Assembly: GCA_963748625.1 (NCBI GenBank)
Contig: CAVVJT010000010.1
Span: 864,001-928,000 of the forward strand
Direction of reading: 5' to 3'
DNA: 64,000 nucleotides
Source of the DNA: an uncultured Chloroflexia bacterium
GTDB lineage: Bacteria > Chloroflexota > Limnocylindria > Limnocylindrales > CSP1-4
Positions 14,123 to 34,379 of the stretch are shown piece after piece. The position numbers and the translations under genes were made by a program. The first letter of the stretch is position 1. Each line of letters begins with the position of its first letter. The notes beneath the pieces are model-generated. The model did no database searches and was not told where the DNA came from. It saw nothing but the letters and a program-made list of their open reading frames with translations.

Positions 14123-14208
14123 GAGGCCGGTCGCGCTGGCGCCCGATCCTGTCGATACCGCCACCGGCACCAGGGAGGGGGGACGACCTCGCCCGGGCGC
14201 TCTGCGCG

Positions 14209-14249
14209 TTGACCTGCCGACCCGTCCAACGGTATGCTCGATAATCGAT
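14209..14249 (+). promoter_or_regulatory. Sigma70-like promoter with an overlapping operator-like site
   Basis: TTGACC (14209-14214), 18-nt spacer, TATGCT (14233-14238), then TCGATAATCGAT (14238-14249), which is identical to 28297-28308. Confidence 0.65.
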
Positions 14250-14292
14250 GATGTGTGGCGGGCTCGGGACCCCGCCCAAGGAAGGGACAGGC

Positions 14293-15102: not shown

Positions 15103-15996
15103 ATGGAGCAGGTCACCGACCGGATCTGGGCCGAGACGAAGGTCCGCGGGTGCAACCCGTGCTTCGTCAAGACGTCCAAGGGACCCGTGGTCATCGATAC
15201 TCCGCAGCTCCCCACCCGCGCGGTTGCGATGCGCGACATGGTCGAGTCGATCGGGCCGATCCAGTACCTGATCAACACGGAGCACCACGTCGACCACATC
15301 TTCGGCAACTACTGGTTCAAGGGCCGCACGCAGATCGTCCACCACCAGGGCGTCCACGACCGGTTCATGACCGTCTATCCGGAACTGGACCCGTTCACGT
15401 ACGCCCTCGAGGCCCTGCCGACCGATGATCCTGACGGCGCCGCCCTCGTCCCCGACCGCGAGACCTATTACGCGAACATGGGTACCGGCGACATCGTGTT
15501 CAGCGGTGACCTGACGCTCAAGGTCGGCGACCGCACGTTCGCGCTGCTCCACACCCCGGGCCACACGCCGGGCCAGGTGGCCGTCTACGTGCCCGAGGAG
15601 CGCGCCGTCTTCACCGGCGACACGATCTTCTCCGAGTGCACCACGTGGCTCATGACGTCCAACGTGGACCAGTGGATCACGGCGCTCGACCGGATCCGCG
15701 CCCTGGACATCGACTACGTGATCCCGGGCCACGGCCCGGTGCAGCCGAAGTCGTACCTGGCCACGCAACGCTCGTTCATGCTCGAGTGGAAGGCGGCCGT
15801 CGCGGTGGCGATCGCGAAGGGCTGGAGCCGCGAGGAGACCATCGCGCGGGTCAGCTTCGCCGAGCGCTACCCGGTGGATATCGGGCAGGAGTACATGATG
15901 GAGTACATCCAGGAGCGCAACGCCGGCGCCCTGTACGACCTGTTCACCAAGCCCACCGAGACGACCTTCCCCGCGGAGCACCCGCCGGCCCGGTAG
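15103..15996 (+). CDS. Metallo-beta-lactamase-fold hydrolase (cyclase-like)
   Basis: VIDTP, NTEHHVDHIFGN (ExHxDH variant), TPGHTPG, FTGD, IPGHG. Confidence 0.88.
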   Translation: MEQVTDRIWAETKVRGCNPCFVKTSKGPVVIDTPQLPTRAVAMRDMVESIGPIQYLINTEHHVDHIFGNYWFKGRTQIVHHQGVHDRFMTVYPELDPFTYALEALPTDDPDGAALVPDRETYYANMGTGDIVFSGDLTLKVGDRTFALLHTPGHTPGQVAVYVPEERAVFTGDTIFSECTTWLMTSNVDQWITALDRIRALDIDYVIPGHGPVQPKSYLATQRSFMLEWKAAVAVAIAKGWSREETIARVSFAERYPVDIGQEYMMEYIQERNAGALYDLFTKPTETTFPAEHPPAR

Positions 15997-16313: not shown

Positions 16314-18317
16314 ATGAACGTCGTCTGCCCCTACTGCCGTGTGCCTGTTGCCGTCGACTCGGCGGGCAACAGCGCCTGTGGGCACCTGCGGGGCAACGCG
16401 GGAGCGCCGGTGCCGCCACCGGTCACCCAAGCCGCACCTCCCCCGCCGGCTCCGGTGCGTCCCCCATCGACGCAGCCGCCGCCGGTCATGCCCGCGCCTC
16501 CGGCCGCACCCCAGGGCGCGACGCCCGGCTGGTCCGCGCCCCCTCCCAAGCGCGGCGGCTGCGGCAAGGCGCTCGGCTGCCTCGCCATCGGTGGGGCGCT
16601 TGTCGTCGCCGCGCTGGTCGGCATCATGCTCTTGCCCGACAGCCTGCTGGACGACCCGTCGGCGGCCGGCGCTACCCGGGCCCCCGGCGCTGCGACCACC
16701 GGCCCGGCGACCACCGAGCCCACACCGCCGCCCGCGGCCGGACCCCTCACCGGCACCATCACCGTCGGCGAGGGCGCGCCCGTGCTGGCGACGAAGGTCA
16801 AGGCCGGCAAGGCAGCCACGCTCAGGGCACCTGGTGATGGGCCTGCCGCCGGGCTCGTGATCGAGGTGCCAACGGGGGCCTACCCCGAGAAGCGGACCTT
16901 CCAGGTCTCCGCGGCCCCGCTCGACATCTCCGGCTTCGACGGTGCCGTCACCCCGATCTCGCCGCTGTTCACGATCGACAACGGCGGCGGGTACGCAGCA
17001 TCACCCATCGAGATCACCATCCCCGTGGACATCCCCGACGGCAGCTTCGCGATGGGCTTCTACCTCCACGACGACGGGTCGCTCGAGGCGATCCCGGTGC
17101 TTGAGGAGAGCGCAGCTTCGATCACGATCGCCACGCGCCACTTCTCCTCGCTGTTCATCGCGATGATCGCCACGGCCAGCCTGCCGGAGACGGTCGGGAC
17201 CGGCTTCCGCGCCGGGGAGGACGATTTCGCGGCACCCAACTACGGCAGCTACATCGCCCCCGGTGGCCACTGCGCGGGCCAGTCACTCGCCTCGATGTGG
17301 TACTTCTCCGAGCGGCGCAGCCAGGGCGCCCCGCAGCTGCACACGCTCTACGAGGGCGTTGGGGACTTCTCGATGACCGAGACGTGGGTCGATGACCGCG
17401 ACATCTACCGCCTCGCCTCGTCGGTGCAGGTCGACCAGGACCTCGGCCTGCTCTACAAGGCGGAGCGAGCCCTCAAGCTTGCCGACTACCAGCGGACGGC
17501 CTGGCTGTCCTTCCGCTATGCGATGCACGTGACGGCCCAGCCCCAGTACGTGAGCCTGGCGGTCAGGGGCGAGGACGGCGGGCATGCCCTGGTCGCCTAC
17601 GCCTACACCCCGTACGGCCTCTTCGTCGCTGACCCGAACGCCCCGGGCGAGCTGCGCAGCATCCATTGGAATGCGGATGCCGGCCGCTTCGACCCCTACG
17701 GCTCGGGCCCCACCGCCGAGACCAGCGACCGGATGTACGACCAGGTCATGTTCTACGCGAAGAGCTCGCTCATCGATTGGGGGCGGATCGGCGCGCGGTG
17801 GGCTGCACTCGAGGACGGCACCATCGGCCAGGACCGCTTCCCGACCTTCTCCTACGAGTACCTGGCCGGCCAGGATGCGACGGGGGTCGACATCTGGCTG
17901 CCGCTGACCGACGGCACAACCGTGCCCGCCTCCACCATCACCATCCGCGCAAGCTCGTGGCCCCCGGCCTCCGGCGAGGTGACGGTGTACGCGGACGCCG
18001 ATCGCTCGTTCGGGGTGCTCGGCACGTTCCCCGCCGGCTGGCCGAACCAGGGAAACGTCGACCTGGGGTACGGAACCTTTGCGATCGGCCTGTATGCGCA
18101 GGCGATCCCCAAGGGCAAGGCCGAGTCCGAAGCCGTGGACTTCCGGACCATCCGCGTCACCACCGGCCTTCCTCCATCCTTCACGCCCGCGCCGCCCGCC
18201 GCCGAGCCGACCCCCGACGCCGGGTACGACTGCAGCACCAAGCCCAAGGGCCAGATCGAGCAGCTCGACTGGGCGCTCCACTGCGAGCAGATCCAGACGA
18301 TCCAGCCGGCACCCTGA
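16314..18317 (+). CDS. Single-pass membrane protein: Zn-finger-like N-terminus, Pro-rich linker, TM helix, beta-rich domain, putative papain-like Cys-His-Asp domain
   Basis: MNVVCPYC...ACGH; TM ALGCLAIGGALVVAALVGIMLL; TRHFS; GHCAG...GHALVAY...VADPN. Confidence 0.7.
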   Translation: MNVVCPYCRVPVAVDSAGNSACGHLRGNAGAPVPPPVTQAAPPPPAPVRPPSTQPPPVMPAPPAAPQGATPGWSAPPPKRGGCGKALGCLAIGGALVVAALVGIMLLPDSLLDDPSAAGATRAPGAATTGPATTEPTPPPAAGPLTGTITVGEGAPVLATKVKAGKAATLRAPGDGPAAGLVIEVPTGAYPEKRTFQVSAAPLDISGFDGAVTPISPLFTIDNGGGYAASPIEITIPVDIPDGSFAMGFYLHDDGSLEAIPVLEESAASITIATRHFSSLFIAMIATASLPETVGTGFRAGEDDFAAPNYGSYIAPGGHCAGQSLASMWYFSERRSQGAPQLHTLYEGVGDFSMTETWVDDRDIYRLASSVQVDQDLGLLYKAERALKLADYQRTAWLSFRYAMHVTAQPQYVSLAVRGEDGGHALVAYAYTPYGLFVADPNAPGELRSIHWNADAGRFDPYGSGPTAETSDRMYDQVMFYAKSSLIDWGRIGARWAALEDGTIGQDRFPTFSYEYLAGQDATGVDIWLPLTDGTTVPASTITIRASSWPPASGEVTVYADADRSFGVLGTFPAGWPNQGNVDLGYGTFAIGLYAQAIPKGKAESEAVDFRTIRVTTGLPPSFTPAPPAAEPTPDAGYDCSTKPKGQIEQLDWALHCEQIQTIQPAP

Positions 18318-18357: not shown

Positions 18358-19014
18358 ATGTCCGGCCTGCTGTATCCGAGCTATGCGCTCGCCTATGTCG
18401 TGCTCCTCGCCTGGGGCTCACGCCTCCTCGTGCGGCGGCCGCGCGCCAGCACGGCGATCATCCTGGCCGTCACCTTCGGCGTCTTCTGGGACAACCTGGT
18501 CCTCGCGTTCGGCGGACTTCTGGGTGACGGTGAGCTCCTCCTCGCCCTGTCGGTCCCCCGGTTCGCGCTGCACCAGCTGGTGCTGCCGTGGCTGATCTAC
18601 GCCGCGTGGTCGATGGCGGACCAGGCCGGCCACGGCTGGGCGGCGCAACGCTGGGCGCAGCCCGGGGCGATCAGTCTCGCCCTGCTCGTCATGGCGGCAG
18701 GCATCGCGACCCGGCTGCTGGGCGTCACGCTGGAGCCGGCGGTCCTTGACGGCGTCCTGCGCTACGTGGCGGTCGGGATCAAGGGGCCGCCCATCGTGAG
18801 CATCGTCAGCATCGCGTTCGTGGGTGTCGCGGGCATCCGATTCTGGCGGTCGGGCTGGCCCTGGGTCACCGTCGCCGCCATCGCGGTCGCCGTCGGCGAG
18901 GGCTTCCCTGACGAGAGCGTCCGGCGGGTGGTCGGGTCGGCCCTCGAACTGGTGTTCATCGCCGTGCTGCTCGAGACGCAGCGGCGCCTGGACGCCGGCC
19001 GGCTCCGCGCCTGA
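18358..19014 (+). CDS. Hypothetical polytopic membrane protein
   Basis: About 7 hydrophobic segments in 218 aa; co-oriented with the upstream gene. Confidence 0.7.
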   Translation: MSGLLYPSYALAYVVLLAWGSRLLVRRPRASTAIILAVTFGVFWDNLVLAFGGLLGDGELLLALSVPRFALHQLVLPWLIYAAWSMADQAGHGWAAQRWAQPGAISLALLVMAAGIATRLLGVTLEPAVLDGVLRYVAVGIKGPPIVSIVSIAFVGVAGIRFWRSGWPWVTVAAIAVAVGEGFPDESVRRVVGSALELVFIAVLLETQRRLDAGRLRA

Positions 19015-19033
19015 CCGCCACGGGTCGCCGTCC

Positions 19034-21160
19034 TCAGGCCCGGCCGGCGGCCGTCTCCTCCGCGCGGGTGCGGCCCGCCAGGGCGATGAGGTCCTCGTGG
19101 AGCTCGAACCAGGCGCCGTGGTAGCTGTCCACCTTGGGGCTCGCGATGTACTTCCCGTTGCCGCCCTCCACCTGGGCCGCCGCAGCGGACAGCCGCACGC
19201 CGTAGAGCGCCAGCCTGGGCAGCCCGGCCGATACCGACGCGAGCCATCCCTCCACGTCACGGTGCAGCTCGCCGAGCCGGGCCAGGACCGCGGCGTCGTA
19301 GGCGGCGTCGGCATGGTCGTTGAAGACGCCTGGCCCCTTGGTCTGCCAGTCGGTGACGACCTGCTTCATCCGCCGGTCGAGGGTGACGAAAGCGTCGAGC
19401 GCGGCGTCCGCGGCAGCCGGGCCCCAGGCGGCACGATCCTCTGCGACCAGCGCCGCGGCGGCCTCCTTGCCCCCGTCGGTGAGGCGGAAGGCGCCCGAGA
19501 ACGGCTCGGCCAGGCCATCGGCCACGAGGGTGTCGATCTTGGACGTCGCCACATCGACCGGGACGCCCATCGCGACCGCGAGCGTGTCCGGCGTGGCGTT
19601 GCCCTTCGCCCTGAGCATCCGGAGCGCCAGGCTCCGCAGGTCGCCCTCCGCCGCCGCTGCCGGTGACGGCGCCCGTGCAGCCCGTGGCTCCTCATCCTCG
19701 CCGATCGCGGTCCCGAGCTCCCGCGCCCACCCGAGCAGCACCTTCGCCTCGGGCACGACCTCCTCCACGCCCGAAGCGACGCCCTCGAAGACCTCGCCGG
19801 TGGCGCCGTCGATCGTGATCACCGCGCCTGCGGCCAGCGTGCGCCCGCCGATGGCCACCACCCCATCCCCGATCACCACGTCGGATGCGCCCACGACCGC
19901 GGGAATCCCCCACCCCCGTGCGACCACCGCCGCGTGCGAGACGAAGCCGCCGGTGGACGTCAGGATCCCGGTCGCCCGGCCCATCCCGTGGACGTCGTCG
20001 GGCGAGGTCTCGGCGCGGACGAGGATCACGTCGCGGCCCGCGTCGGCGACCGCAACCGCGGCGTCCGGCGTCAGCGCGATCTCGCCGCAGGCGATGCCCG
20101 GAGAGGCCGCGAGGCCCGACGCCAGCAGCACGCCACCACCATCCCGGCACACGACCGAGCGGGGCGGATCGGCCAGGATCAGCCGCACGCGCTCCACCGC
20201 CTCCTCGCGGGACAGCGGGAACGTGGGGTCTTCCGCCATGTCGAGTGCCATCCGGAGCGCGGCCTGGGGCGTCCGCTTGCCGACCCGCACCTGGAGCAGG
20301 AACAGCCGGCCCTGCTCGATGGTGAACTCGATGTCACAGCAATCGCGGTAGTGGCGCTCGAGGCGGCCTGCGAAGTCCCGCAGCTCCGCCCCGACCGACG
20401 GCAGGCGCGTCTCAAGGACGGCGATCGGCTCCGTGGCGTGCGTGCCTGCGACCACGTCCTCGCCCTGGGCGTTGAAGAGGATGTCGCCGTAGAGCAGGTG
20501 CTCGCCGGTCGCCGGGTTGCGCGTGAAGAGCACCCCGGTTCCCGAGTCCGGGCCCCGGTTCCCGAACACCATCGCCTGGACGGTGACCCCGGTGCCCAGG
20601 TCGTCCGCGATCCCCTCGTGCTCGCGGTAGGCCTTCGCCCGATCGCTGTTCCAGGAGCGGAACACCGCCTCGACGGCGCCGCGCAGCTGGTCCCACGGGT
20701 CGGCGGGCACTGCGGGTACGCCCACGATCGAGCAGTACGAGGCCCGGAACCGCGCGTGGCAGTCGGCGGCGAACGCCGCGTCGCCTGAGACCCTCGCCAG
20801 GCCCGCCTCGGTCGCCTCGTTGAGTCCGAGGTTCAGGATCGTGTCCATCATCCCGGGCATCGACCGCGGAGCGCCGGACCGGACCGAGACGAGCAGCGGG
20901 TCGATCGCCGATCCGAAGCCCCGCCCGACCTTCAGCTCGAGCGCGGCCATCTGCGCGCGCAGCTCGTCGGTCAGCCCGGCGGGCCAGCCGTGGGCGAGGT
21001 AGTCCAGGCAGGCCTCGGTGGACACCGTGAACGCCGGCGGGACCGGCAGCCCCATCGCCACCGCCATGGTCGAGATGTTGGCGGCCTTGCCGCCGATCTT
21101 GCGCTGCAGCTCGGGGAGCGGCAGGCCATGGTCGACGTCGTACGCGAAGACGAACGTCAC
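19034..21160 (-). CDS. PPDK-like protein (ATP-grasp plus phospho-His swivel domain) lacking the pyruvate-binding barrel, fused to a wHTH/helical C-terminal domain
   Basis: IGGKAAN, LLVSVRSGAPRSMPGMMDTILNLGLN, VQAMVFGN, NAQGEDVVAG, DIEFTIE, GGFVSHAAVVARG; C-terminal NDHADAAYD...DSYHGAWFELHEDL. GTG start overlaps the upstream stop. Confidence 0.88.
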   Translation of the reverse strand: MTFVFAYDVDHGLPLPELQRKIGGKAANISTMAVAMGLPVPPAFTVSTEACLDYLAHGWPAGLTDELRAQMAALELKVGRGFGSAIDPLLVSVRSGAPRSMPGMMDTILNLGLNEATEAGLARVSGDAAFAADCHARFRASYCSIVGVPAVPADPWDQLRGAVEAVFRSWNSDRAKAYREHEGIADDLGTGVTVQAMVFGNRGPDSGTGVLFTRNPATGEHLLYGDILFNAQGEDVVAGTHATEPIAVLETRLPSVGAELRDFAGRLERHYRDCCDIEFTIEQGRLFLLQVRVGKRTPQAALRMALDMAEDPTFPLSREEAVERVRLILADPPRSVVCRDGGGVLLASGLAASPGIACGEIALTPDAAVAVADAGRDVILVRAETSPDDVHGMGRATGILTSTGGFVSHAAVVARGWGIPAVVGASDVVIGDGVVAIGGRTLAAGAVITIDGATGEVFEGVASGVEEVVPEAKVLLGWARELGTAIGEDEEPRAARAPSPAAAAEGDLRSLALRMLRAKGNATPDTLAVAMGVPVDVATSKIDTLVADGLAEPFSGAFRLTDGGKEAAAALVAEDRAAWGPAAADAALDAFVTLDRRMKQVVTDWQTKGPGVFNDHADAAYDAAVLARLGELHRDVEGWLASVSAGLPRLALYGVRLSAAAAQVEGGNGKYIASPKVDSYHGAWFELHEDLIALAGRTRAEETAAGRA

Positions 21161-23427
21161 GACGCGGGTTCCTTGGCCTGCAGCGCGTGCCAGACGCGCT
21201 CGGGGGTGAGCGGGAGGTCGTGGAGCTCGATGCCGGCGGCCTCGCGCACGGCAGCTGCCACGGCTGACGCCACGCCCAGCAGCGCGCCCTCGCTCATGCC
21301 CTTGCTGCCATACGGTCCCGGCCCGTCCGCATTCTCGACGGCCTCGCTGTGGAGCTCGACCGGGAGGTCCATGGACGTGGGGATCCGGTAGTCGATGGCG
21401 CCCAGGTTCCGGATCCGGCCCCAGTCGTCCCAGATGTAGTGCTCCATGAGCGTGTGGCCGAGGCCCATGATCGCCGCGCCCTCGTCCTGCATCCGGACCT
21501 GGAGCGGGTTGAGGGCTTTGCCGACATCGCTCACCGTGATGTGCCGGTGGATCGTGATGTCCCCGGTCTCCTCGTCGACGGACGCCTCGATGGCGGTTGC
21601 GTTGAACTCGAAGAAGGCGGCGGCGCCCGAGAGCGGGTGTGCGGGGTCGGCGTCCTTGCGGGTCTCGCCAAGACCCGTGATCTCGCCACCCAGCCTGCCG
21701 AAACCCGGCTTCATGACGTCCACAGGGGCGAGCTCGCGGCCGTCGGGCAGGCGGATGCGGCCGTTCGCGACCTCGATCGCCGCCTCGTCGATGCCGTGGA
21801 CGCGCGCGGCCATCGTGCGCAGCCTGGCCTGGACGTCCCGGCACGCAGCAAGGACGGCGTTGCCCATGAGCACGGTGGAGCGCGACGCCGACGTCTGCTG
21901 GTCGTACGGGACGATCGCGGTGTCGCCCATGACGACCGTGACCCAGTCGAGCGGGGCGCCCAGCTCCTGTGCGGCGATCTGTGCCAGGACGGTGCGGGCG
22001 CCCTGGCCCATGTCGGATGTGCCCGCGTACACGACGACCGACCCGTCGCCGAGGAGGCGCACGGTCGAATAGGACAGGCCGGTGGTGGGACCGGACTTGA
22101 TGCCCAGGGCGATGCCGCGGCCACGGCCCTCGGGGATCGGTGTGTCCCAGCCGATGCGATCCGCAGCGAGGCGGACGGTCTGCTCCCACTCCCCGTCGCA
22201 GGGCGTGTCGAACGGGATGAAGCGATCGCCCTTGTGCGCCAGGTTGCGCAGGCGGATGTCCAGCCGGTCGATGCCGAGCGCCTTCGCGCCGTCGTCGAGG
22301 TTGGACTCGACCGCCCAGTTGACCTGGGGGTTGCCGAAGCCGCGGAAGGCGGTCGAGGGGACGGTGTGCGACAGGATCGAGCGGGCCACGATGCGGACGG
22401 CGGGCACGAGGTACGGCCCGGCGGCCGGGTACGACCCCTTGCCCACGACCCGGTCCGCGATGTCCGTGTACGCGCCGATGAGATAGTCGGCGCGGATGTC
22501 CTGGAAGGCGATGCGACCGTCGGTGGTGAAGCCGGTCCGCACGTGGGTCTCGCACGCGGCGCGTCGCACGGCCTGGAACGTCTCCTCGAGCGTGAGGACG
22601 AGACGCACGGGCCGCCCGACCTTGAGCGCGGCGAACACGACCGCCGGCTCGTACTTCGCGTGCTGCTTGCCGCCGAAGCCGCCACCCGGGTCCGGGGCGA
22701 AGACCCGCACCTTCGCAAGCGGCAGGCCGACGAGCTGGGCGATGGTCTTCTGGAGCCAGTTGGGGTGCTGGATCGTGGACCACACGGCTATACCCCCGCC
22801 ATCCGGCGCGGCCATGAAGGCGTGGGGCTCGATGGCGAAGTGGGTGACCATGGGGAAGGTGTAGCGGCCCTCCACGATGACGCCTGCGGCGCGCTCGGCG
22901 GCCACGAGGTCGCCCCACTCGACGCGGTGCTCGTTGAGGACGTTGGTGTCCGCCCGCGGGTCGGCGGCGCCGCGGAGGGCCGGGTCCTGGACGAGGGGCG
23001 CGCCGGGCGCCAGCGCGGTGCCGATCGTGACGACCGCGGGGAGCTCCTCGAAGCTCACCTTGACGGCCGCGGCGCCGGCCTCGGCCTGCTCGAGCGTGTC
23101 GGCCGCGACAAGGGCGACGGGATCACCGTGGAACTTGGTCTCGCCGATCGCGAGCACCGGCCGGTCCACGCGCTGCGGGCCGAAGCGGGGCATCGGGTCC
23201 GGCAGGTCCGCGGCCGTCAGGACGAGGCGCACGCCGGGCAGGGCGAGTGCAGCCGATGCGTCGATCGCGTCGATCCGGGCACGGGCGACCGGCAGGGTGA
23301 CCAGCTTCGCGTGGAGCACGTCGGCGAGGCGGATGTCCGCGAGGTACTGCTGGGCGCCGGTCACCCGGTCGATGCCGCCGACACGATTCGGGGAGCCGCC
23401 GATGACCGGGTGGTCGGCAGGGCTCAC
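21157..23427 (-). CDS. Xanthine oxidase/dehydrogenase family molybdopterin-binding large subunit
   Basis: IEPH, GGGFGGK, AFRGFG, DMGQGARTVLAQIAA, DVGKALNP, DYRIPT, KGMSE (catalytic Glu). Confidence 0.93.
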   Translation of the reverse strand: MSPADHPVIGGSPNRVGGIDRVTGAQQYLADIRLADVLHAKLVTLPVARARIDAIDASAALALPGVRLVLTAADLPDPMPRFGPQRVDRPVLAIGETKFHGDPVALVAADTLEQAEAGAAAVKVSFEELPAVVTIGTALAPGAPLVQDPALRGAADPRADTNVLNEHRVEWGDLVAAERAAGVIVEGRYTFPMVTHFAIEPHAFMAAPDGGGIAVWSTIQHPNWLQKTIAQLVGLPLAKVRVFAPDPGGGFGGKQHAKYEPAVVFAALKVGRPVRLVLTLEETFQAVRRAACETHVRTGFTTDGRIAFQDIRADYLIGAYTDIADRVVGKGSYPAAGPYLVPAVRIVARSILSHTVPSTAFRGFGNPQVNWAVESNLDDGAKALGIDRLDIRLRNLAHKGDRFIPFDTPCDGEWEQTVRLAADRIGWDTPIPEGRGRGIALGIKSGPTTGLSYSTVRLLGDGSVVVYAGTSDMGQGARTVLAQIAAQELGAPLDWVTVVMGDTAIVPYDQQTSASRSTVLMGNAVLAACRDVQARLRTMAARVHGIDEAAIEVANGRIRLPDGRELAPVDVMKPGFGRLGGEITGLGETRKDADPAHPLSGAAAFFEFNATAIEASVDEETGDITIHRHITVSDVGKALNPLQVRMQDEGAAIMGLGHTLMEHYIWDDWGRIRNLGAIDYRIPTSMDLPVELHSEAVENADGPGPYGSKGMSEGALLGVASAVAAAVREAAGIELHDLPLTPERVWHALQAKEPAS

Positions 23428-23900
23428 GACGCGACCTCCCCGCTCGCGACGGCCTCAACCGCCTCGAAGATCTGCTCGTAGCAGGCGCACCGGCAGAGGT
23501 TCCCTGCCATCCCCTCCTCGATCTCGTGGCGCGTCGGGTGCGCGTGCTCCGCGAGCAGGGCATGCGCCGACATCAGCTGGCCCGGGATGCAGAAGCCGCA
23601 TTGGACCGCGCCCTTGTCCAGGAACGCCTGCTGGAGCGGGGCAAGGCGGCCGTCGCGCGACGCCAGGCCCTCCACGGTGAGGATCGCGGCGCCGTCGCAC
23701 TCCGCCGCAAGCACCAGGCAGGCGTCCACGCTCCGGCCGTCGAGCAGCACCGTGCACGCGCCACACTCCCCCACGAGGCAGCACTCCTTGGTGCCGGTCA
23801 GCTCGAGATCGCATCGCAGGACGTCGAGAAGGGTGGCATGCGGGGCGACGTCCACGGTGCGGGCGATGCCGTTCACGGTCATCGTGACGTTGATGGTCAT
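23424..23900 (-). CDS. 2x[2Fe-2S] small subunit (CoxS/XdhC-type)
   Basis: GTKECCLVGECGACTV, QCGFCIPG, GNLCRC. Confidence 0.95.
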   Translation of the reverse strand: MTINVTMTVNGIARTVDVAPHATLLDVLRCDLELTGTKECCLVGECGACTVLLDGRSVDACLVLAAECDGAAILTVEGLASRDGRLAPLQQAFLDKGAVQCGFCIPGQLMSAHALLAEHAHPTRHEIEEGMAGNLCRCACYEQIFEAVEAVASGEVAS

Positions 23901-24769
23901 GCCGGCACCTCCCCATCGAGGCGGGCGAGCGCCGTCGCCAGCGCCCGGCGGCCCAGGACCCGGAGCATCGCGAGCCGGTACTCGGGCCCCGCACGCATGG
24001 ACGTCGGCGACGGGTGTGCATCAGCGAACAGGTGCTCGAACACGGCCGCGCGGTCCTCCTCGGACGAGGTCGGGTCCGCGAGGATGCCCGACGAGTCCAT
24101 GCGGAGCAGCGGCCGCGGCCCGACGCTGCCGAACGCGACCCGGGTCACGTCGGAACCGTCCACTCCGCAGGCGAGCGTGACCGACGCGAGGTCGTGGCCG
24201 CGGCGTCGGGTCCGCCGCTGGTGGGCACTCGCAAGGCGGACATGGCGCGCAGGGAGCTCGATCGCGGTGACCAGCTCGCCCCGCGCCAGCGTGGTGACCC
24301 CGGACCGGACGAAGAACGCATCGAGGGGGATGCGGCGCGCGCCGCCCGGACCCGCGGCGACGATGATGGCGCCATGGATCAGGAGCGCTGGCGCCGTGTC
24401 GGCCGCCGGCGACGCATTGCACAGGTTGCCCGCGAGCGTCGCCCGGTTGCGGACCTGGACCGAGCCGACAACCGCCGCCGCCTCCGCAAGCGCGGCGACG
24501 TGACGCCGGATCACCGGGTGCGCCGCAATCTCGGTCATCGTGGTCGTGGCGGCGATGACCAGCCAGCCCCCATCGCCGGCACGGATCCCCGGCGCCAGCT
24601 CCGGCACGCGCTTCACGTCCACCACGATCGAGGGCGTCGCCGATCCATCCCGGAGGCGGATCAGGAGGTCGGTGCCGCCCGCCAGCACGCGCGCCGCGGA
24701 CCCGTGCTCGGCGAGCAGGGCCACGGCCTCCGCGAGGCTTGTCGGGCGGGCGTACTCGAACGGATGCAT
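23897..24769 (-). CDS. FAD-binding medium subunit (CoxM-type)
   Basis: FEYARP, LAGGTDL, QVRNRATLAGNLCNASPAAD. No Cys-rich [4Fe-4S] insert. Confidence 0.93.
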   Translation of the reverse strand: MHPFEYARPTSLAEAVALLAEHGSAARVLAGGTDLLIRLRDGSATPSIVVDVKRVPELAPGIRAGDGGWLVIAATTTMTEIAAHPVIRRHVAALAEAAAVVGSVQVRNRATLAGNLCNASPAADTAPALLIHGAIIVAAGPGGARRIPLDAFFVRSGVTTLARGELVTAIELPARHVRLASAHQRRTRRRGHDLASVTLACGVDGSDVTRVAFGSVGPRPLLRMDSSGILADPTSSEEDRAAVFEHLFADAHPSPTSMRAGPEYRLAMLRVLGRRALATALARLDGEVPA

Positions 24770-24772
24770 GGT

Positions 24773-25666
24773 TCAGGCGAGGATCCTGTCCACCTCGTCC
24801 ATGAGGACCTGGGGGTTAGCCGCACGGATGAAGTAGAAGGGGCGCTCGCAGAACCGGTTCACGAACTCCGCGCGGCGGGCGCGCAACTCGTCGTTGTCCA
24901 CCAGGGGCATCACATGTCCCGGCGCGAGCAGCTCGTTGGTCAGGAAGTAGTTCTGGAGGCTGTGCAGGAACTGGAACTGGCGCTCGAACGGGATGAGCTC
25001 GTTCGTGGCCGCGTCGAAGTTGCCGTCGATGGCCGGGACGATGACGAGGTCGATGTCGGGCTCGCCGTCGAAGAGCTCCCACTCCGGCATCACCGGGCCC
25101 CAGAACTTCTCGACGCCCTTGTTCGGGGCAGCCTTGTCGGAGCGCTCGGTGCCCTCGGTGCGCTTGACGAGGAACACGTCCACGGAGCCCATGACGGCGC
25201 GGCCGTCGTCAGCGATGACCGTGGTCTCGGAGGCCACCTGGCGCGCGCCGCGCTTGCCGGCCTCGATCAGGCCCATGGACTTGCCGTGGTTGGACTCGCC
25301 GCCCAGGAACAGGAACGTCCTGCCCTTGTAGTTCACGGCAGCGGAGTGGGACGGGTGGAGACCGACCGCCTCCATGCGCAGCGCGAGCACGGCCACGATG
25401 ACCTTCTGGATGGGACCCGCCGGCCAGTCCCCGGTGAACGTGACCCGGCGACCGTCGTACTCGACCTTCTTCGCCCCATCCTGGTTCCAGATGATGTCGG
25501 GCTCGGCCAGGGTGACCTCGGGCGAGATCCGAACATCGGCCAGGCGGTAGTTCATGAAGGACATGTCGTCGAGCACGTGCTCGCGCGGCGCGCCCCCGTG
25601 GACGTCGATCCGCAGGCGGGCGGCGCCGCAGGAGAACTCCTCGGTGAGCTGGAGCGTGTCGTTCAT
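24773..25666 (-). CDS. Hypothetical protein with a divergent HPr-kinase-like P-loop domain
   Basis: HSAAVNYKGRTFLFLGGESNHGKS...KRGARQVASE resembles the HprK C-terminal layout (H..V...G.....G.SG.GKS...RG..LVADD). Confidence 0.62.
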   Translation of the reverse strand: MNDTLQLTEEFSCGAARLRIDVHGGAPREHVLDDMSFMNYRLADVRISPEVTLAEPDIIWNQDGAKKVEYDGRRVTFTGDWPAGPIQKVIVAVLALRMEAVGLHPSHSAAVNYKGRTFLFLGGESNHGKSMGLIEAGKRGARQVASETTVIADDGRAVMGSVDVFLVKRTEGTERSDKAAPNKGVEKFWGPVMPEWELFDGEPDIDLVIVPAIDGNFDAATNELIPFERQFQFLHSLQNYFLTNELLAPGHVMPLVDNDELRARRAEFVNRFCERPFYFIRAANPQVLMDEVDRILA

Positions 25667-26409
25667 CGTGTCCTTCCGGGGGTGTCAGTCAGCGAGGGCT
25701 CAGCGGGGCCTGCGGGATCGGCGGACGCACCGGGTTCGGCCGGCTCCCCGGGCATCTCCACCCAGCGCTCGGCGAGCGAGGCGCGGGCAAGCTCGAAGTG
25801 GTGGCGGATGGCGTCCTCGGCGACGGCCGGGTCGCCGCCCCGAAGGCTCTCGATAATGGGCCCGTGGAGCTCTGCCATGCGGACGCGGTCGCCGCCCGGG
25901 AGGGCCATCGTGATGTACGTGCGCGAGTGCGGCTCAAGCCTGCCCCACACGCGGGCCAGCGTCGCGTTGCCGGCGAGGTCCACCAGGTCGCCGTGGAAGC
26001 CGGCGTCGGCGGCCGCCTCGGCCACGGTGTCCCCGGCGCGCGCGGCGTCGAGCATGTCGGCCAGGCGCCGCGCCAGGCGGACGAGATCGGCCTCGCCCAG
26101 GTTGGGCAGCGCGAGCCGGATGGCCAGGGCCTCGAGCTCGGCGCGCACCACGTACGCCTCGAGCATCTCGGCCTTCGACGGCCGCCGCACCCGGGCGCCG
26201 CGGAAGGCGGCGATCTCCACGACCCCGAGCGCCTCGAGGTCGCGGAGCGCCTCGCGGACGGGCGCCTGGCTGGTTCCCAGCTCCTTGGCCACCCGGGTCT
26301 CGATGATGCGGGACCCGGGCGGATAGCGGCCGTCGAGGATGCCCTCGAGCAGGCGGTCCTTGACGGCGTCCGACAGGACGCTGCGGGCGATGGCGGTCTC
26401 GGCAGTCAT
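25663..26409 (-). CDS. GntR (FadR subfamily) transcriptional regulator
   Basis: GRYPPGSRIIETRVAKELGTSQAPVREAL...RGARV; FCD-type domain with DAGFH and RHH. Confidence 0.93.
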   Translation of the reverse strand: MTAETAIARSVLSDAVKDRLLEGILDGRYPPGSRIIETRVAKELGTSQAPVREALRDLEALGVVEIAAFRGARVRRPSKAEMLEAYVVRAELEALAIRLALPNLGEADLVRLARRLADMLDAARAGDTVAEAAADAGFHGDLVDLAGNATLARVWGRLEPHSRTYITMALPGGDRVRMAELHGPIIESLRGGDPAVAEDAIRHHFELARASLAERWVEMPGEPAEPGASADPAGPAEPSLTDTPGRTR

Positions 26410-26423
26410 CCTGTCGTTCCCGG

Positions 26424-28217
26424 TCAGTCGATCGCCGGGATTGCGGGCGCCGCACGCTCGATGATGTCGACCACGCCGAGGACGTACGTCGTCCCGTCCT
26501 CGCGGGTGACCTCGCGGGAGGTGAGCCGCACCCGGTCACCGGTCCTGATCTTCGCGGTGGCGTTCGAGGTGCCCACGACCGCGGGAATCTCGTACTCGCG
26601 CGCGAGCACGGCCGGGTGCGCGGCGAACCCCCCGGCATCGGTCACGAGGCCTTGGATCTTGCCGAACAGGATCTGCCAGGCCGGGTTGGTCATCTGGCAG
26701 ACGAGGATGTCGCCGGGCTTGACCTGGTCGAACTCGGCCTCGGACAGGACCACGCGGGCGACGCCCTCGACGGTACCCGGCGAGCCCAGGATGCCGGTGA
26801 CCTCGGCCTCGGCCGCCCCGATGGAGCGATAGAACTTCTCCGGGAAGGCCCACAGGTTGAGATACGGGAAGTCGAGCTGGGCCTGGGTGCAGGTGCCCAC
26901 CCAGTCACGCGGCGTGACATCGTAGGCGGCGTCGCGCTCGGCCTTGTTCTTGGCGACCAGGGCACGGGCGTCGCCGGTCGGGTTGCCGATGACGTACCGC
27001 AGCTCGTTGTAGTGCATGAGGATCACGTCGTCGGGGCGGTCGATGGCGCCCGATGCCACGAGCTTCTCGCCCACCGCGAGCAGGACCTGGCGCACGTGCG
27101 CGTTGGCGCCCTGGTCGATGTAGAAGTGGTGGTCCGGGGTGAGCGGCGCCATGCGCAGGTTGACCGTCAGGGCCCGCTGCATGTCGGCGAGAGCGTCACC
27201 CTCCAGGCCGTCGAGGATCTCGGCTGAGGCGGCCTTGATGTCGTCGGCGAGGCGCTTCTTGGACGCCGGGTAGTCGTAGTCCTGGGTCACCTGGTCCCGC
27301 ACGAGGCCGATGATCGGCTCCATGTTCTCGAGGAAGCTCGGGAAGATGAACTCGTGGCTCCAGACCGCGTGCCAGCCGAACTCCTGCTGGTACGGCTTGA
27401 CGCGCTCGGCGATGAAGCGCTGGCCGCGCGGGCTCGCCTCGAGGGCCGCGACGATGTCCGCGGGCTCCTTGTGGTCGAAGGCAGCCTGAAGGTCAGGGTT
27501 GACCGTGACCTCCTCCTTCATGACCCACAGGGCCTCGATCTTGTCCCAGTTGCGGTCGGTGGCCGAGTTCTGGAGCCGGCCGAGGAGCGCGGGGTCCGCC
27601 TTGCCATGCTTGGCGGCGGTGGCCTGGAGGTCAAGGGTGCCGCTGAACTGGGCGAAATTCAGCATCCAGTGGATCTTCCAGTGGCGATCGTGGATGTCGA
27701 TCGCGTCCTCAAGGAGCACCGCGGCCCGGGCAAGGGACATGCTGTCCTTGGTCGCCAGCCGCGCCTCGAGGTAGTCGAAGTTGCGCTGCATCTCGGGGAC
27801 CAGGCGGTTCTTCCACCAGTCCGCGAACTCCATGCCGTACACGCCAAGCGTGCCGAACAGGTAGCCCCCGATGTTCGCCGCGTACGCCGGGTCCTGCGGG
27901 ACGACGGCGTTCATCGCGAACCCGTTCTCCTGCATCGCGACCTTGACGCCGGCTTCGGCCGGGACCGCCGCGGTGTACAGGTAGCCGTTGATCTTCTTGG
28001 CGATCCAGTCGCTCGCGAACGGCGTGCCGAAGCGGCGGAACATGTGGTCGCACGTGAGCCACCAGCCGCCGATGTCCTCGTACATCGGCGACAGCGGCTG
28101 CGGGCAGTGCAGGTCGTCGAAGACCCAGAAGAGGTCCTTCTCCGTCTCGCTCGACCACTCGACCGGGAACGACTCGTCACCGAAGAAGGTGGCGAGCGCT
28201 GTCTCCTTGAGGGGCAC
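26424..28217 (-). CDS. PEP-synthase-family phosphotransferase subunit: large helical substrate domain plus phospho-His swivel domain, no ATP-grasp
   Basis: N-terminal WVFDDLHCPQP, long helical core; C-terminal GSPGTVEGVARVV, GDILVCQMTNPAW, TDAGGFAAHPAVLAREYEIPAVVG. RBS AGGAGG. Confidence 0.85.
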   Translation of the reverse strand: MPLKETALATFFGDESFPVEWSSETEKDLFWVFDDLHCPQPLSPMYEDIGGWWLTCDHMFRRFGTPFASDWIAKKINGYLYTAAVPAEAGVKVAMQENGFAMNAVVPQDPAYAANIGGYLFGTLGVYGMEFADWWKNRLVPEMQRNFDYLEARLATKDSMSLARAAVLLEDAIDIHDRHWKIHWMLNFAQFSGTLDLQATAAKHGKADPALLGRLQNSATDRNWDKIEALWVMKEEVTVNPDLQAAFDHKEPADIVAALEASPRGQRFIAERVKPYQQEFGWHAVWSHEFIFPSFLENMEPIIGLVRDQVTQDYDYPASKKRLADDIKAASAEILDGLEGDALADMQRALTVNLRMAPLTPDHHFYIDQGANAHVRQVLLAVGEKLVASGAIDRPDDVILMHYNELRYVIGNPTGDARALVAKNKAERDAAYDVTPRDWVGTCTQAQLDFPYLNLWAFPEKFYRSIGAAEAEVTGILGSPGTVEGVARVVLSEAEFDQVKPGDILVCQMTNPAWQILFGKIQGLVTDAGGFAAHPAVLAREYEIPAVVGTSNATAKIRTGDRVRLTSREVTREDGTTYVLGVVDIIERAAPAIPAID

Positions 28218-28296
28218 CGTTGATCCTCCTTGTGCCCGGGGCTGACGTCCCCGCGGGCCTGGGTGTGGCTGGTGTACCGGCGCGACGGATCTACCT

Positions 28297-28343
28297 TCGA
28301 TAATCGATTAGCGATGGTAGGCCTGCGGCGGAGCGGGCGTCAA
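28297..28343 (-). promoter_or_regulatory. Sigma70-like promoter of the minus-strand operon with a downstream operator-like site
   Basis: On the minus strand TTGACG (28343-28338), 18-nt spacer, TACCAT (28319-28314), then the pseudo-palindrome that reads TCGATAATCGAT on the plus strand at 28297-28308. Confidence 0.65.
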
Positions 28344-28396
28344 GACGGGTACCCGTGCGATGGGAGACCGCTCGGATTGCAGCCGGCGGCCGCCGA

Positions 28397-29062
28397 TCAA
28401 CCCCCGCCCGACAGCCAGCCACCGGCCAGGTGCGCCGACGCCTCGTCGAAGTGCCGGCGCAACGCGGCCTCGACCGCCGCCGCATCCCGAGCCCGGAGCG
28501 CCGCGAGCACCGGCAGGTGCAGGTCCGCGGACCACTGCGCATCGGCCCCCGGCGCGACCAGCGTGATGTAGGTGCGCGAGAATGGCTCCAGGGACTGCCA
28601 CACCCGCTCCAGCGTGCCGTTCCCTGCCAGCGCGAGGATCCGCGCATGGAATGCCGCATCCACGACGGCCACGGCATGCCGGTCTCCAGCCCGCGCTGCG
28701 TTCTGCATGCCGGCGCCAAGCGCCTCGAGCTCGTCGAGGTCGGCCCCGGTCATCCCGGGCACACCCAGCCGCGCGCCCAGCGCCTCCAGCTCGGAGCGGA
28801 CGATGTACGCCTCCAGCAGCTCCGCCGTCGACGGCATTCGCACGCGCGCACCGCGGAACGGCATGATCTCCACGATCCCGAGCGCTTCGAGGCCGCGCAG
28901 GGCCTCCCGGACGGGCGCCTGGCTGACCCCGAGCTCCCGCGCCACCCGCGTCTCGACGATCCGCGCCTCGGGCGGATACTTGTCGGACAGGATGTCCTGC
29001 AGGAGCCGGTCCTTGACCTGCTCGGCGAGCACACTGCGGGAGATGGTCGGGTCGGCTGGCAT
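28397..29062 (-). CDS. GntR (FadR subfamily) regulator, paralogue of 25663-26409
   Basis: SRSVLAEQVKDRLL...ETRVARELGVSQAPVREAL...LEPFSRTYIT. Confidence 0.92.
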   Translation of the reverse strand: MPADPTISRSVLAEQVKDRLLQDILSDKYPPEARIVETRVARELGVSQAPVREALRGLEALGIVEIMPFRGARVRMPSTAELLEAYIVRSELEALGARLGVPGMTGADLDELEALGAGMQNAARAGDRHAVAVVDAAFHARILALAGNGTLERVWQSLEPFSRTYITLVAPGADAQWSADLHLPVLAALRARDAAAVEAALRRHFDEASAHLAGGWLSGGG

Positions 29063-29080
29063 GGAGCACTCGAGTGGGCT

Positions 29081-30016
29081 GTGAACGGTTCGGAGCATAG
29101 CGCTGCCACGCAGCCGCGAGGGCTCGAACAGCACGGCGATCCCGTCGCTGACGGGCGGATCGCGAGCGTCCCGCACCACTGGACAGTCTGGGCGTTCGCG
29201 GACATCCACGGCGTTGCCTCCGGCTTCGAGCAGGGGCTGCGCGAGGCGGGGCTGGTCGACGAGCGCCTCCGCTGGGTGGCCCCGCCCGAGACCGCGCTCG
29301 TGGGCTGTGGGGACTACGTGGACCGGGGCACGGCCAACCGCCGCGTGACCGCGCTCCTCCGTCGCCTCCAGGCGGAGGCTCAGGCCGCCGGCTCCCTCGT
29401 GATCCCCGCCCGTGGCAACCACGACCACCTTCTCTCCACGCTGGCCGAGGGCACCAGCGTCGATCTCGCCACCTGGCTGGCATATGGCGGCGGTGCCACC
29501 CTCGACGACTTCGGGCTCCCCACGCCGGATCGCGCCGACCCCGCCCCCACCCTGCGGCGCATGGACGAGGGGCAGCCGGGCTTCCTGGCGTGGCTGGCTT
29601 CCCTCCCTCACGCCGTCCGCTGGCGTGACGTCCTCTTCGTCCACGGCGGCCTCCCGCCATGGGCGGGCCTCGACGACTTCGGCACGCAGACCGAGCAGCA
29701 CCTCTACGTCCGCCGCGACTGGTTCACGACAGCGTGGGAGACGGGCGTGTTCACGCGCTTCGAGGAGGCAGGCATCGCGCGCGTCGTCTTCGGTCACACC
29801 CCGCGTCCTGACGGCGCGCAGCTGTTCCACGGTGGCCGCTCCATCGACCTCGACACCAACGCCTGCGGCAACCCCCACATGCCCGATGACGCCCGGCGCC
29901 TGGTCACCCTGCTCGAGCTGCACGGCGACATCCCCTTCGCGGAGGCCCGGCGGGTCGTCGTGGACACCCGCGACGCTCCCGACCGCTCGCGGATGCAACC
30001 TCCCGGCAACCCTTGA
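29081..30016 (+). CDS. Calcineurin-like metallophosphoesterase (PPP/ApaH-like)
   Basis: DIHG, GDYVDRG, RGNHD, VHGG, FGHT, DLDT. Start is uncertain. Confidence 0.85.
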   Translation: MNGSEHSAATQPRGLEQHGDPVADGRIASVPHHWTVWAFADIHGVASGFEQGLREAGLVDERLRWVAPPETALVGCGDYVDRGTANRRVTALLRRLQAEAQAAGSLVIPARGNHDHLLSTLAEGTSVDLATWLAYGGGATLDDFGLPTPDRADPAPTLRRMDEGQPGFLAWLASLPHAVRWRDVLFVHGGLPPWAGLDDFGTQTEQHLYVRRDWFTTAWETGVFTRFEEAGIARVVFGHTPRPDGAQLFHGGRSIDLDTNACGNPHMPDDARRLVTLLELHGDIPFAEARRVVVDTRDAPDRSRMQPPGNP

Positions 30017-30087: not shown

Positions 30088-31161
30088 ATGAACGCCCCCG
30101 CCAAGCTGAACGCTCTCGGCCAGAGCCTGTGGCTCGACAACATCACCCGTGACCTGCTCGACTCCGGCACGCTCGCGCGCTACATCGCGGAGCTCTCGGT
30201 CACCGGGCTCACGTCGAACCCGACGATCTACGACAAGGCGATCAGCGGCGGCACCTCCTACGACGAGGACGTGCGCGAAGGCGCCGCGGCCGGCCTCGAC
30301 GCCGAGGGCATCTTCTTCGAGCTTGCGCTGGCGGACCTGCGCCGGGCGGCCGACCTGTTCCGGCCCATCCACGACCGCACCCTGGGCGTGGACGGGTTCG
30401 TGTCGCTCGAGGTCTCACCCCTGCTGGCCGACGACGCGGAGCAGACGCAGGTCTGGGCGGCGAAGCTGCACGCAGCGGGCGGGCGGCCGAACCTGTTCAT
30501 CAAGATCCCGGGCACCCCGGCGGGCCTCGTCGCCATCGAGGAGACGATCTTCGCGGGCGTGCCGGTCAACGTGACGCTCCTCTTCAGCGTGGACCAGTAC
30601 CGCGGCTGCCTGGAGGCCTACACGCGGGGCATCGAGCGCCGCGTCGAGGCAGGGCTGTCGCCGTATGTCGCGTCCGTGGCGTCGGTGTTCGTCAGCCGCT
30701 GGGACGGGGCCACCGCGTCGAAGCTCCCGGCGGAGCTCAAGAACCGCCTGGGCCTGGCGATCGGGCGGGCCGCGTACGCCGAGTACCGGTCCTTCACCAG
30801 CTCCGACCGCTGGCAGCGCCTGGCGAACGTCGGCGCGCGGCCGCAGCGCCTGCTCTTCGCCTCCACCGGGACGAAGGACCCGGCCGAGTCGGACACGATG
30901 TACATCGGCGGGCTGGCCGCACCGAACACCGTCAACACGATGCCCGAGGACACGCTCCTCGCGTTCGGTGACCACGGCGAGATGGGTGGCCTGCTCGACC
31001 CGGACATGGAGCACGCGCTCAACGAGCTGGCACGCTTCGCCGATGCCGGCATCGACATCGACGGGCTGGGGGCCGAGCTGCAGGCCAAGGGCGCCGCGTC
31101 CTTCGTGGACTCGTGGGCGTCGCTGGTGAAGCGGATCGAGGAGAAGGCCGCCGCGGGCTGA
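30088..31161 (+). CDS. tal: Transaldolase
   Basis: GQSLWLDNI, GLTSNPTI, VSLEVSP, NLFIKIP, VNVTLLFS, VASVFVSR, ASTGTK, TVNTMP. Confidence 0.96.
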   Translation: MNAPAKLNALGQSLWLDNITRDLLDSGTLARYIAELSVTGLTSNPTIYDKAISGGTSYDEDVREGAAAGLDAEGIFFELALADLRRAADLFRPIHDRTLGVDGFVSLEVSPLLADDAEQTQVWAAKLHAAGGRPNLFIKIPGTPAGLVAIEETIFAGVPVNVTLLFSVDQYRGCLEAYTRGIERRVEAGLSPYVASVASVFVSRWDGATASKLPAELKNRLGLAIGRAAYAEYRSFTSSDRWQRLANVGARPQRLLFASTGTKDPAESDTMYIGGLAAPNTVNTMPEDTLLAFGDHGEMGGLLDPDMEHALNELARFADAGIDIDGLGAELQAKGAASFVDSWASLVKRIEEKAAAG

Positions 31162-34241: not shown

Positions 34242-34320
34242 CGGCAGGCTCCCGTACGAGGGTCGACGTGGACACTCAGGGTACGGTGCCGGGACTTGAC
34301 AGGTCGGCCGGCAGCATCGA

Positions 34321-34338
34321 TAGTTGCACGCGCAACCA
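34321..34338. promoter_or_regulatory. Imperfect palindrome, candidate repressor (MarR-like) site upstream of pirin
   Basis: TAGTTGCACGCGCAACCA with GTTGC/GCAAC arms, in the divergent promoter region. Confidence 0.4.
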
Positions 34339-34379
34339 CACAGTGGAACCACACATCAGCCAGGAAGGCAGGCGTCCCC

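Follow-up and report, generated by a model that had tools for sequence, protein, structure and literature searches.

The 64,000-nucleotide stretch analyzed here (the window; GC content, 72%) comes from the metagenome-assembled genome (MAG) of a soil bacterium of the phylum Chloroflexota, Limnocylindria type, and carries on its minus strand seven closely packed genes that encode two incomplete proteins of the dikinase type, a regulator of the GntR family, a small P-loop protein, and three subunits of a molybdenum-dependent oxidoreductase. These genes, referred to below as G, F, E, D, C, B, and A in the order of their transcription, span positions 19034 to 28217; a second GntR family regulator, H, is encoded 179 bp upstream of G (Table 1). 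The operon is real and conserved and represents a putative dikinase-coupled molybdenum hydroxylase system of a known kind with a new conserved partner, the E protein or “mini-PEPCK,” and a defined regulon. The initial annotation of this sequence described a tightly packed operon, and its gene order and spacing were confirmed: the A/B, B/C, C/D, and E/F pairs overlap by 4 bp, and gaps of 3 and 14 bp separate D from E and F from G, respectively. The reading frames are backed by a third-position GC frame plot and the list of open reading frames (ORFs). Proteins of the window were assigned to families by searches with Pfam and NCBIfam models, and the Pfam matches bear out the domain make-up proposed earlier, with G lacking the ATP-grasp domain, A lacking the pyruvate domain, and B, C, and D being the molybdenum, iron-sulfur, and FAD subunits. 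The 4.63-Mb genome is 98.3% complete with a reported contamination of 7.74%; the contig that contains the window is 1.4 Mb long, so that this contamination level casts no doubt on the operon.

Table 1. Genes and sites of the operon and its surroundings (window positions unless stated otherwise)
Feature	Position	Strand	Basis
G, substrate-domain and swivel phospho-His protein, 597 aa	26424-28217	-	PF00391 at residues 500-565; no PF01326
F, intra-operon regulator of the GntR/FCD type	25663-26409	-	PF00392 and PF07729
E, P-loop protein of predicted PEPCK/HprK fold (mini-PEPCK), 297 aa	24773-25666	-	GGESNHGK129S; no Pfam or NCBIfam match
D, FAD subunit, CoxM/CutM type, 290 aa	23897-24769	-	FAD_binding_5 (PF00941) and CO_deh_flav_C (PF03450)
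C, 2x[2Fe-2S] subunit	23424-23900	-	Fer2 (PF00111) and Fer2_2 (PF01799)
B, molybdopterin subunit, XDH family	21157-23427	-	Ald_Xan_dh_C and MoCoBD_1/2; PF01315, PF02738, PF20256
A, truncated PPDK, 708 aa	19034-21160	-	PF01326 and PF00391; no PF02896
A, extra C-terminal domain, residues ∼495-708	19037-19678	-	
H, additional GntR/FCD regulator and F paralogue	28397-29062	-	Pfam; 58% identity to F
Promoter-like site TTGACG-18-TACCAT before G	28314-28343	-	Sole such site in 18900-29300; mean of 0.2 in shuffles
Operator copy 1, TCGCTAATCGATTATCGA	28297-28315		Directly after the -10 hexamer, before G
Operator copy 2	14238-14249		Ends where the SDR gene begins
SDR, gluconate-5-dehydrogenase/KduD-like	14248-15078	+	NCBIfam NF006070, 208 bits, under its cut-off
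MBL-fold hydrolase	15103-15996	+	NCBIfam TIGR04558, 92.8 bits, under its cut-off
Operator copy 3	Contig 972138-972155 (8139-8156 of locus L174)		After TTGACG-18-TACCAT; 44 kb beyond the window
∼640-aa protein	16401-18317	+	Good codon-position GC; no Pfam family
∼217-aa membrane-like protein	18361-19014	+	Good codon-position GC; no Pfam family
Calcineurin-like phosphoesterase, divergent from H	∼29150-30016	+	PF00149
Transaldolase	30088-31161		
994-aa fusion protein	31371-34355	-	FAD-linked oxidase, 4Fe-4S, and CCG domains
Two ORFs of ∼700 aa each	45111-47246 and 47158-49266	-	Coding-type GC; no Pfam match

Judging from its sequence, G is related, distantly but along its full length, to the substrate/swivel components of two-component dikinases, because it aligns over 91% of the length (24.7% identity) with the CreH-type “PEP-utilizing enzyme” encoded in a Rhodococcus plasmid cluster and, over residues 243 to 569, with the rifampin phosphotransferase RPH (PDB entry 5hv2; E value, 3.7e-25). 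The Rhodococcus cluster encodes, in this order, a P450, a grasp protein, the PEP-utilizing enzyme, an SDR, a ferredoxin, a reductase, an HD-domain protein, and an aldehyde dehydrogenase, a layout that we take to be that of the cre (4-cresol) cluster. The motif around the catalytic His534 of G, TDAGGFAAH, fits the T/SxxGGxxxH rule. The N-terminal ∼240 residues matched neither a PDB sequence nor a model of the Pfam set searched; in precomputed annotation, all listed homologues of G are assigned to PF27448, which may be an existing name for this substrate domain.

The A protein consists of an ATP-grasp domain (residues ∼1 to 340), a swivel domain with His409 (∼341 to 480), and an extra C-terminal domain. 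Residues 21 to 484 pass the model of the truncated-PPDK family, NF004531/PRK05878 (502.8 bits against a cut-off of 456), and residues 18 to 479 align with Clostridium PPDK (PDB 9pzl; E value, 8e-118). Nevertheless, A is not a genuine pyruvate, phosphate dikinase, because the PEP/pyruvate-binding TIM barrel, PF02896, is absent in the Pfam search and the TIGR01828 score of 501.7 is below the cut-off of 843. The C-terminal domain is 39% identical (E value, 1e-38) to a stand-alone 206-aa protein from a Diaphorobacter plasmid, whose gene sits between those for a PEP-utilizing enzyme and a truncated PPDK; the same trio is found on a plasmid of M. avium. In other records this domain is named MarR-like, and it has weak matches to the MarR models of Pfam (E values of 0.1 to 0.3). 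The Rv1127c/Rv1126c pair of M. tuberculosis is presumably a further example of the truncated-PPDK family.

The proposal that the two incomplete dikinases complement each other in trans gained support from genomic context. Relatives of G are clustered with grasp-only proteins elsewhere: on the megaplasmid of Thermomicrobium roseum, where a G relative with 47% identity accompanies a grasp-only PPDK_N protein and a molybdenum subunit that is 37% identical to B, and in the metagenome loci L099, L101, and L106. Genes of the A and G types adjoin each other on the two unrelated plasmids just mentioned, from Diaphorobacter and M. avium. In the genome under study, PF01326 is confined to three proteins (a full-length PPDK, A, and one that is PEPS/RPH-like), and no separate grasp-only gene was found.

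The B, C, and D subunits belong to the XDH family. The best PDB matches of B were the alpha subunit of 4-hydroxybenzoyl-CoA reductase (336 bits) and then quinoline 2-oxidoreductase (221 bits), and B scored under every NCBIfam cut-off. Identity with the former enzyme was considered and rejected: B reaches 436.5 on TIGR03194 against a cut-off of 994.55, far under the model's threshold, and D, at 290 rather than ∼324 aa, lacks the [4Fe-4S] insertion of HcrB, so that B/C/D are not a 4-hydroxybenzoyl-CoA reductase. D matches CutM over its full length, and its match to HcrB is restricted to residues 4 to 119. On the models of glyceraldehyde dehydrogenase, the three subunits score 135 to 307 bits, also under the cut-offs. 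The marker of the known phenol pathway, UbiD (PF01977), had no match anywhere in this 98.3%-complete genome; this pathway is thereby ruled out, and the statement in the initial annotation that the operon does not encode it was upheld at the level of the whole genome.

The E protein is the orphan of the set. It had no match among Pfam or NCBIfam models, with no hit to PF01293 and none to PF07475 even at E values up to 5, and a phmmer search against 1.84 billion representative sequences recovered 177 clusters at E values of ≤0.001, many of them fragments and none tied to a named family. An AlphaFold2 (AF2) model built from the single sequence was set aside (pLDDT, 42.6), and a model built from a 17-row alignment reached a pLDDT of 88.7. 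In a Foldseek search with the latter model, the top ∼33 matches were ATP-dependent PEP carboxykinases (PEPCKs; probability, 1.00), and HprK/P appeared from rank 37. VIA-align superimposed 247 of the 297 residues on residues 92 to 453 of the T. thermophilus PckA (Z score, 12.6; root mean square deviation [rmsd], 4.5), and 123 residues of the segment from 101 to 297 on HprK/P (Z score, 10.7; rmsd, 3.3). A profile of the E family matched PckA (1j3b) with an E value of 0.008, precisely over the P-loop region, and gave weak matches in Chloroflexota genomes in frames of 530 to 607 aa, the size of PEPCK; the clusters nearest to E in a language-model atlas are named “PEP carboxykinase family protein.” The earlier label of E, “HprK-like,” thus stands at the superfamily level, while at the finer level the modeled protein as a whole fits ATP-PEPCK better and is more aptly called a half-size ATP-PEPCK, HprK being the weaker match. 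Across 18 sequences with identities down to 37%, 42 positions are invariant, including H107, G123-E-x-N-H-G-K129, E147, R169, E174, R175, D177, and D214. Many of these residues are charged, and they are spread over both domains; by this pattern, E looks like an enzyme. A prediction of the G-E complex from two alignments returned a score of 0.00, which speaks neither for nor against binding.

The operon shares a putative operator with two other transcription units. The exact 12-mer ATCGATTATCGA occurs three times in the 4.63-Mb genome, and the reversed control pattern does not occur at all. Each of the three copies directly follows a promoter-like site of the form TTGAC[GC]-18-TA..AT/CT: the site before G, a TTGACC-18-TATGCT site (read by eye) before the genes for an SDR and an MBL-fold hydrolase, and the site before an operon beyond the end of the window. 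The SDR and MBL genes lie ∼3 kb past A; two plus-strand genes occupy the space between, one coding for a ∼640-aa protein that is Pro-rich toward its N terminus and contains a hydrophobic stretch, the other for a membrane-like protein. The third operon encodes DeoC (219 bits against a cut-off of 117), an IolG-like GFO dehydrogenase, an SIS isomerase (257 bits against a cut-off of 135), and an ABC transporter of the monosaccharide type; a gene for a ROK family regulator or kinase is found near this copy as well. Among the 80 related loci described below, 69 contain the exact operator, at 115 sites in total, and none contains the control pattern. An orthologue of the SDR (at least 60% identity) is encoded in 18 of these loci, 13 of which have the exact operator just upstream and 2 a version with one mismatch; the remaining 3 end before the operator position. 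Such a shared and conserved operator supports co-regulation of the SDR-MBL pair with the operon, as had been suggested initially. We infer that F and/or H bind this operator.

Conservation of the gene set was assessed in the best 80 of 420 loci with E in a species-level genome collection, all of the Limnocylindria type (tblastn, E values of ≤1e-10 over at least half of the query; many loci end at contig edges). E is present in all 80, D in 79, C in 78, F in 77, G in 73, B in 72, and A in 58, so that the genes found together in the window do co-occur elsewhere. Within the same genus, 22 of the 24 other genomes encode E; in a sister family with genomes of ∼1.1 Mb, none of 16 does; and in a sample of 301 Chloroflexota genomes, strong matches were confined to 9, all from one class. 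In most relatives, genes for a “cyclase” family hydrolase (PF04199) and a Zn-dependent alcohol dehydrogenase (Zn-ADH) are inserted between B and A, and genes for a UPF0261 protein and a PEP-hydrolase-like protein precede G. The operon of relatives is also accompanied by divergent TAL/FSA, split transketolase, and Zn-ADH genes.

More distant members of the family were collected from metagenomes in a scan seeded with divergent E sequences; of the best 80 of 542 loci, the 37 that were at least 8 kb long were counted and the 43 shorter ones were excluded. In the 16 loci with close E proteins (at least 58% identity to the E of the window), the FAD subunit of an XDH-type enzyme is encoded in all 16, G in 10, a grasp protein in 5, and the cyclase in 9, with no AOR, HMGL-like, or cupin genes. 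The 6 loci with intermediate E proteins (45 to 58%) contain AOR in 3, G in 2, a grasp gene in all 6, and the cyclase in 3, with no XDH, HMGL-like, or cupin genes, and in each of them a GntR gene follows E. The 15 loci with distant E proteins (<45%) all encode AOR and none encodes XDH; G is found in 11 of these, a grasp gene in 8, the cyclase in 10, an HMGL-like protein in 9, and a cupin in 10. The more distant members of the E family come from loci of low to medium GC content, and the arrangement in L106 includes a DMSO-reductase-type enzyme, too. A pterin-dependent oxidoreductase is encoded near E in all 37 loci, dikinase parts (G or a grasp protein) are encoded there in 30, and the pterin family near E varies, being either of the molybdenum XDH type or of the AOR type. 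The link of the dikinase to the molybdenum enzyme, as claimed initially, was therefore overstated: it is not obligatory, since distant E/G clusters have AOR family genes instead. Members of both families, XDH and AOR, oxidize aldehydes, and their exchange around one kinase core suggests the same chemistry with different cofactors in aerobes and anaerobes. Beside the E/G/AOR/cyclase/HMGL cluster of L109, a gene with a PCNA_N domain is found at positions 13993 to 14772 of that contig, which is therefore probably archaeal and suggests that the module of E, dikinase, and pterin enzyme also occurs in Archaea. Several metagenome loci are near-duplicates, which reduces the set to perhaps six independent arrangements.

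Taken together, these data are compatible with a catabolic module under repressor control, a reading for which belief and doubt are evenly balanced. In it, G and A would jointly act as a split dikinase: the ATP-grasp domain of A would bind ATP, and His534 of G would become pyrophosphorylated or phosphorylated and deliver the phosphate to the N-terminal substrate pocket of the same protein. A small molecule would there be phosphorylated at a hydroxyl or enol group, by analogy with PpsAB, CreHI, and HpeHI. B/C/D would oxidize the same compound or its phosphorylated form, at an aldehyde group or at a C-H bond next to a heteroatom. E could catalyze a further phosphoryl transfer on a pathway intermediate, preferably, as a guess, the removal of the phosphate onto ADP or Pi, possibly with (de)carboxylation. 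F and/or H would repress three promoters, those of the operon itself, of the SDR-MBL pair, and of the deoC/sugar-uptake operon. This reading is supported by the intact domains and His motifs, the distant homology of G to a CreH-type component and to RPH, the logic of the partner proteins, the conservation of the gene set, the predicted fold and invariant residues of E, the regular presence of a pterin enzyme gene near E, the operator, and the genetics of Ensifer adhaerens (see below). If E recovers phosphoryl groups or carboxylates its substrate, it would extend by one step the “activation by phosphorylation” known from the catabolism of phenol, cresol, and acetovanillone.

As for the substrate, a hydroxylated aromatic or N-heteroaromatic compound is expected with somewhat less than even confidence, a choice favored by the characterized relatives of G, by MarK of the UPF0261 family, and by the best solved matches of B. 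A compound derived from sugars (an aldehyde, acid, or enol) is a serious but weaker candidate, favored by the deoC operon of the regulon, the gluconate dehydrogenase/KduD-like SDR, the TAL/FSA and transketolase genes of the relatives, and the exchange of XDH for AOR; a small remainder of the probability falls to something else.

Several observations weigh against the catabolic module as outlined. A search of the window's genome for PF04199 was negative, the Zn-ADH gene is likewise absent between B and A, and the UPF0261 and PEP-hydrolase-like genes are on another contig, so that the window holds a reduced version of the operon. The related genomes are kin and several loci are near-duplicates, and the counts given above therefore overstate independence. 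The E profile had no match on the plasmid records of T. roseum and Diaphorobacter; given that the former has G, grasp, and XDH genes, E is not required in every such cluster. A keeps its own swivel His409 intact along with the extra domain, neither of which is needed in a two-component dikinase, and may therefore run a separate relay. Finally, the regulon partner is a sugar operon, a poor fit to the phenolic substrates of the characterized relatives.

This last point leads to a carbohydrate-type pathway, which is possible, if on the unlikely side, and in which the molybdenum enzyme would be an aldehyde or lactol oxidoreductase (replaced by the tungsten AOR in anaerobes), the SDR and MBL proteins a sugar-acid dehydrogenase and a lactonase, and the dikinase and E would act on a sugar acid or enol. 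The gene content of the third operator operon, with its deoC, IolG-like dehydrogenase, SIS isomerase, and monosaccharide-type transporter genes, is in line with such a pathway, as are the best NCBIfam matches of the SDR (gluconate-5- and glucose-1-dehydrogenases), the TAL/FSA, split transketolase, and Zn-ADH genes that adjoin the operon in relatives, the mutual substitution of two aldehyde-oxidizing families around E, and the sub-threshold matches of B/C/D to glyceraldehyde dehydrogenase models. However, a common operator is no proof of a common pathway, and among solved structures B matches 4-hydroxybenzoyl-CoA reductase best and the quinoline oxidoreductase second. Furthermore, the characterized relatives of G all phosphorylate phenols or rifampin, according to the HpeHI study (PMC12167813), and UPF0261, which heads the operon in relatives, includes MarK, an ADP-forming phenol kinase described as the first activity for this family (PMC12624787).

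Two other explanations concern single components of the module. HprK and PDRP act on phospho-carrier proteins, and E, which shares the fold of HprK/P and is encoded between regulator and enzyme genes, might similarly be a kinase/phosphorylase by which the swivel domain of G or that of A is turned on and off, although this role appears improbable. The whole protein, including the N-terminal sheet domain, fits PEPCK and not HprK, and the invariant charged residues extend over both domains. In PEPS and PPDK, the regulatory Thr precedes the catalytic His by two residues (PMC12167813); this position is occupied by Ala in G and by Val in A, so that a PDRP-type Thr switch was rejected. Even less probable is that A does not serve G and is an autonomous phospho-relay or regulatory protein, with G being charged by a different donor, for example PEP or the housekeeping PPDK or PEPS. 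A does have its own swivel His409 and a C-terminal domain with MarR-like annotation elsewhere and weak MarR matches, and the genome does encode a full PPDK and a PEPS/RPH-like protein. Still, the same tight operon ends with A, which is kept in 58 of the 80 related loci, genes of the A and G types are neighbors on unrelated plasmids, and G relatives elsewhere have a dedicated grasp partner in their clusters.

A bolder extension of the catabolic module, and a doubtful one, is that E, together with the dikinase and a pterin oxidoreductase, makes up an ancient, mobile module of three parts that is distributed over Bacteria and Archaea. The mini-PEPCK would then represent a new class of enzymes that return the dikinase-derived phosphate to ADP, possibly with a CO2 step, and the substrate would be a nonaromatic enol or aldehyde from central or sugar metabolism. 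If so, this kind of “phosphorylate first” catabolism would be nearly free of energy cost.

Some of the genes around the operon deserve mention on their own. A calcineurin-like phosphoesterase is encoded next to H and could be a candidate phosphatase of a phosphorylate-first pathway; it is kept at this place in only 5 of the 80 related loci. A transaldolase gene lies nearby, and just past it, a 994-aa GlcD/GlcF-like protein combines the FAD-linked oxidase, 4Fe-4S, and CCG domains. Farther on in the window, two ORFs with coding-type GC content had no Pfam match.

With respect to known systems, E has the same (predicted) PEPCK-like P-loop fold as ATP-PckA and HprK and shares with them the motif pattern GxxxAGxIQK...H...GxSxxGK[ST]. 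Full-length ATP-PckA proteins comprise ∼530 aa with an N-terminal oxaloacetate-binding region, whereas the 297-aa E aligns only to PckA residues ∼92 to 453, and its genomic partners are dikinase parts rather than genes of gluconeogenesis or of the phosphotransferase system (PTS).

The subfamily of two-component dikinases named in the HpeHI study comprises PpsAB, CreHI, and HpeHI/AcvAB, with HpeHI characterized there (PMC12167813). Like these, G combines a substrate domain with a C-terminal swivel domain containing the T/SxxGGxxxH motif, and the ATP-grasp domain resides on a separate protein. HpeH, CreH, and PpsA are ∼45% identical to each other according to the same study, in contrast to just ∼25% between them and G. 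The known grasp partners, as described there, are PEPS-like proteins of ∼340 to 376 aa that consist of the grasp domain alone, whereas A is of the PPDK type, retains a swivel His, and bears an additional domain; moreover, the operon adds E and the pterin oxidoreductase. Compared to the truncated PPDKs of the NF004531/PRK05878 family, A is fused to the ∼200-aa domain that is the product of a separate gene on the Diaphorobacter and M. avium plasmids.

The most similar system as a whole is the 3hpd cluster of Ensifer adhaerens HP1, in which the molybdenum hydroxylase HpdA1-4 converts 3-hydroxypyridine only in the presence of orf9 and orf10, annotated as “pyruvate-phosphate dikinase” and “PEP-utilizing protein mobile subunit,” respectively; this report describes clusters of this type from 38 strains of Actinobacteria and Proteobacteria, saw no phosphorylated intermediate, and leaves the role of orf9 and orf10 unexplained (bioRxiv 10.1101/2020.01.08.898148). 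The search of the open literature, with subscription journals outside its coverage, revealed no paper on E, on the pairing of AOR with a dikinase, or on a solved mechanism of orf9/orf10. The need of some molybdenum hydroxylases for a dikinase has awaited an explanation ever since the 3hpd study, and the cluster described here provides a second, widespread test system that brings a defined operator, two candidate repressors, and the new conserved partner E. By the published gene descriptions, and not by sequence orthology, the two clusters share XDH family genes for the molybdenum, iron-sulfur, and FAD components, accompanied by genes for a GntR regulator and for two proteins annotated as PEP-utilizing and as PPDK. 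The 3hpd cluster also features a separate SRPBCC subunit (HpdA3) and the maleamate-pathway genes hpdBCDE, and no such Pfam families were found in the operon or in the scanned ORFs of the window. The initial view of this system as undescribed can thus be maintained only in part: two-component dikinases and a dikinase-dependent molybdenum hydroxylase have been published (PMC12167813; bioRxiv 10.1101/2020.01.08.898148), but the PPDK-type fusion in A, the presence of E, and the absence of the SRPBCC and maleamate genes set the operon apart from 3hpd.

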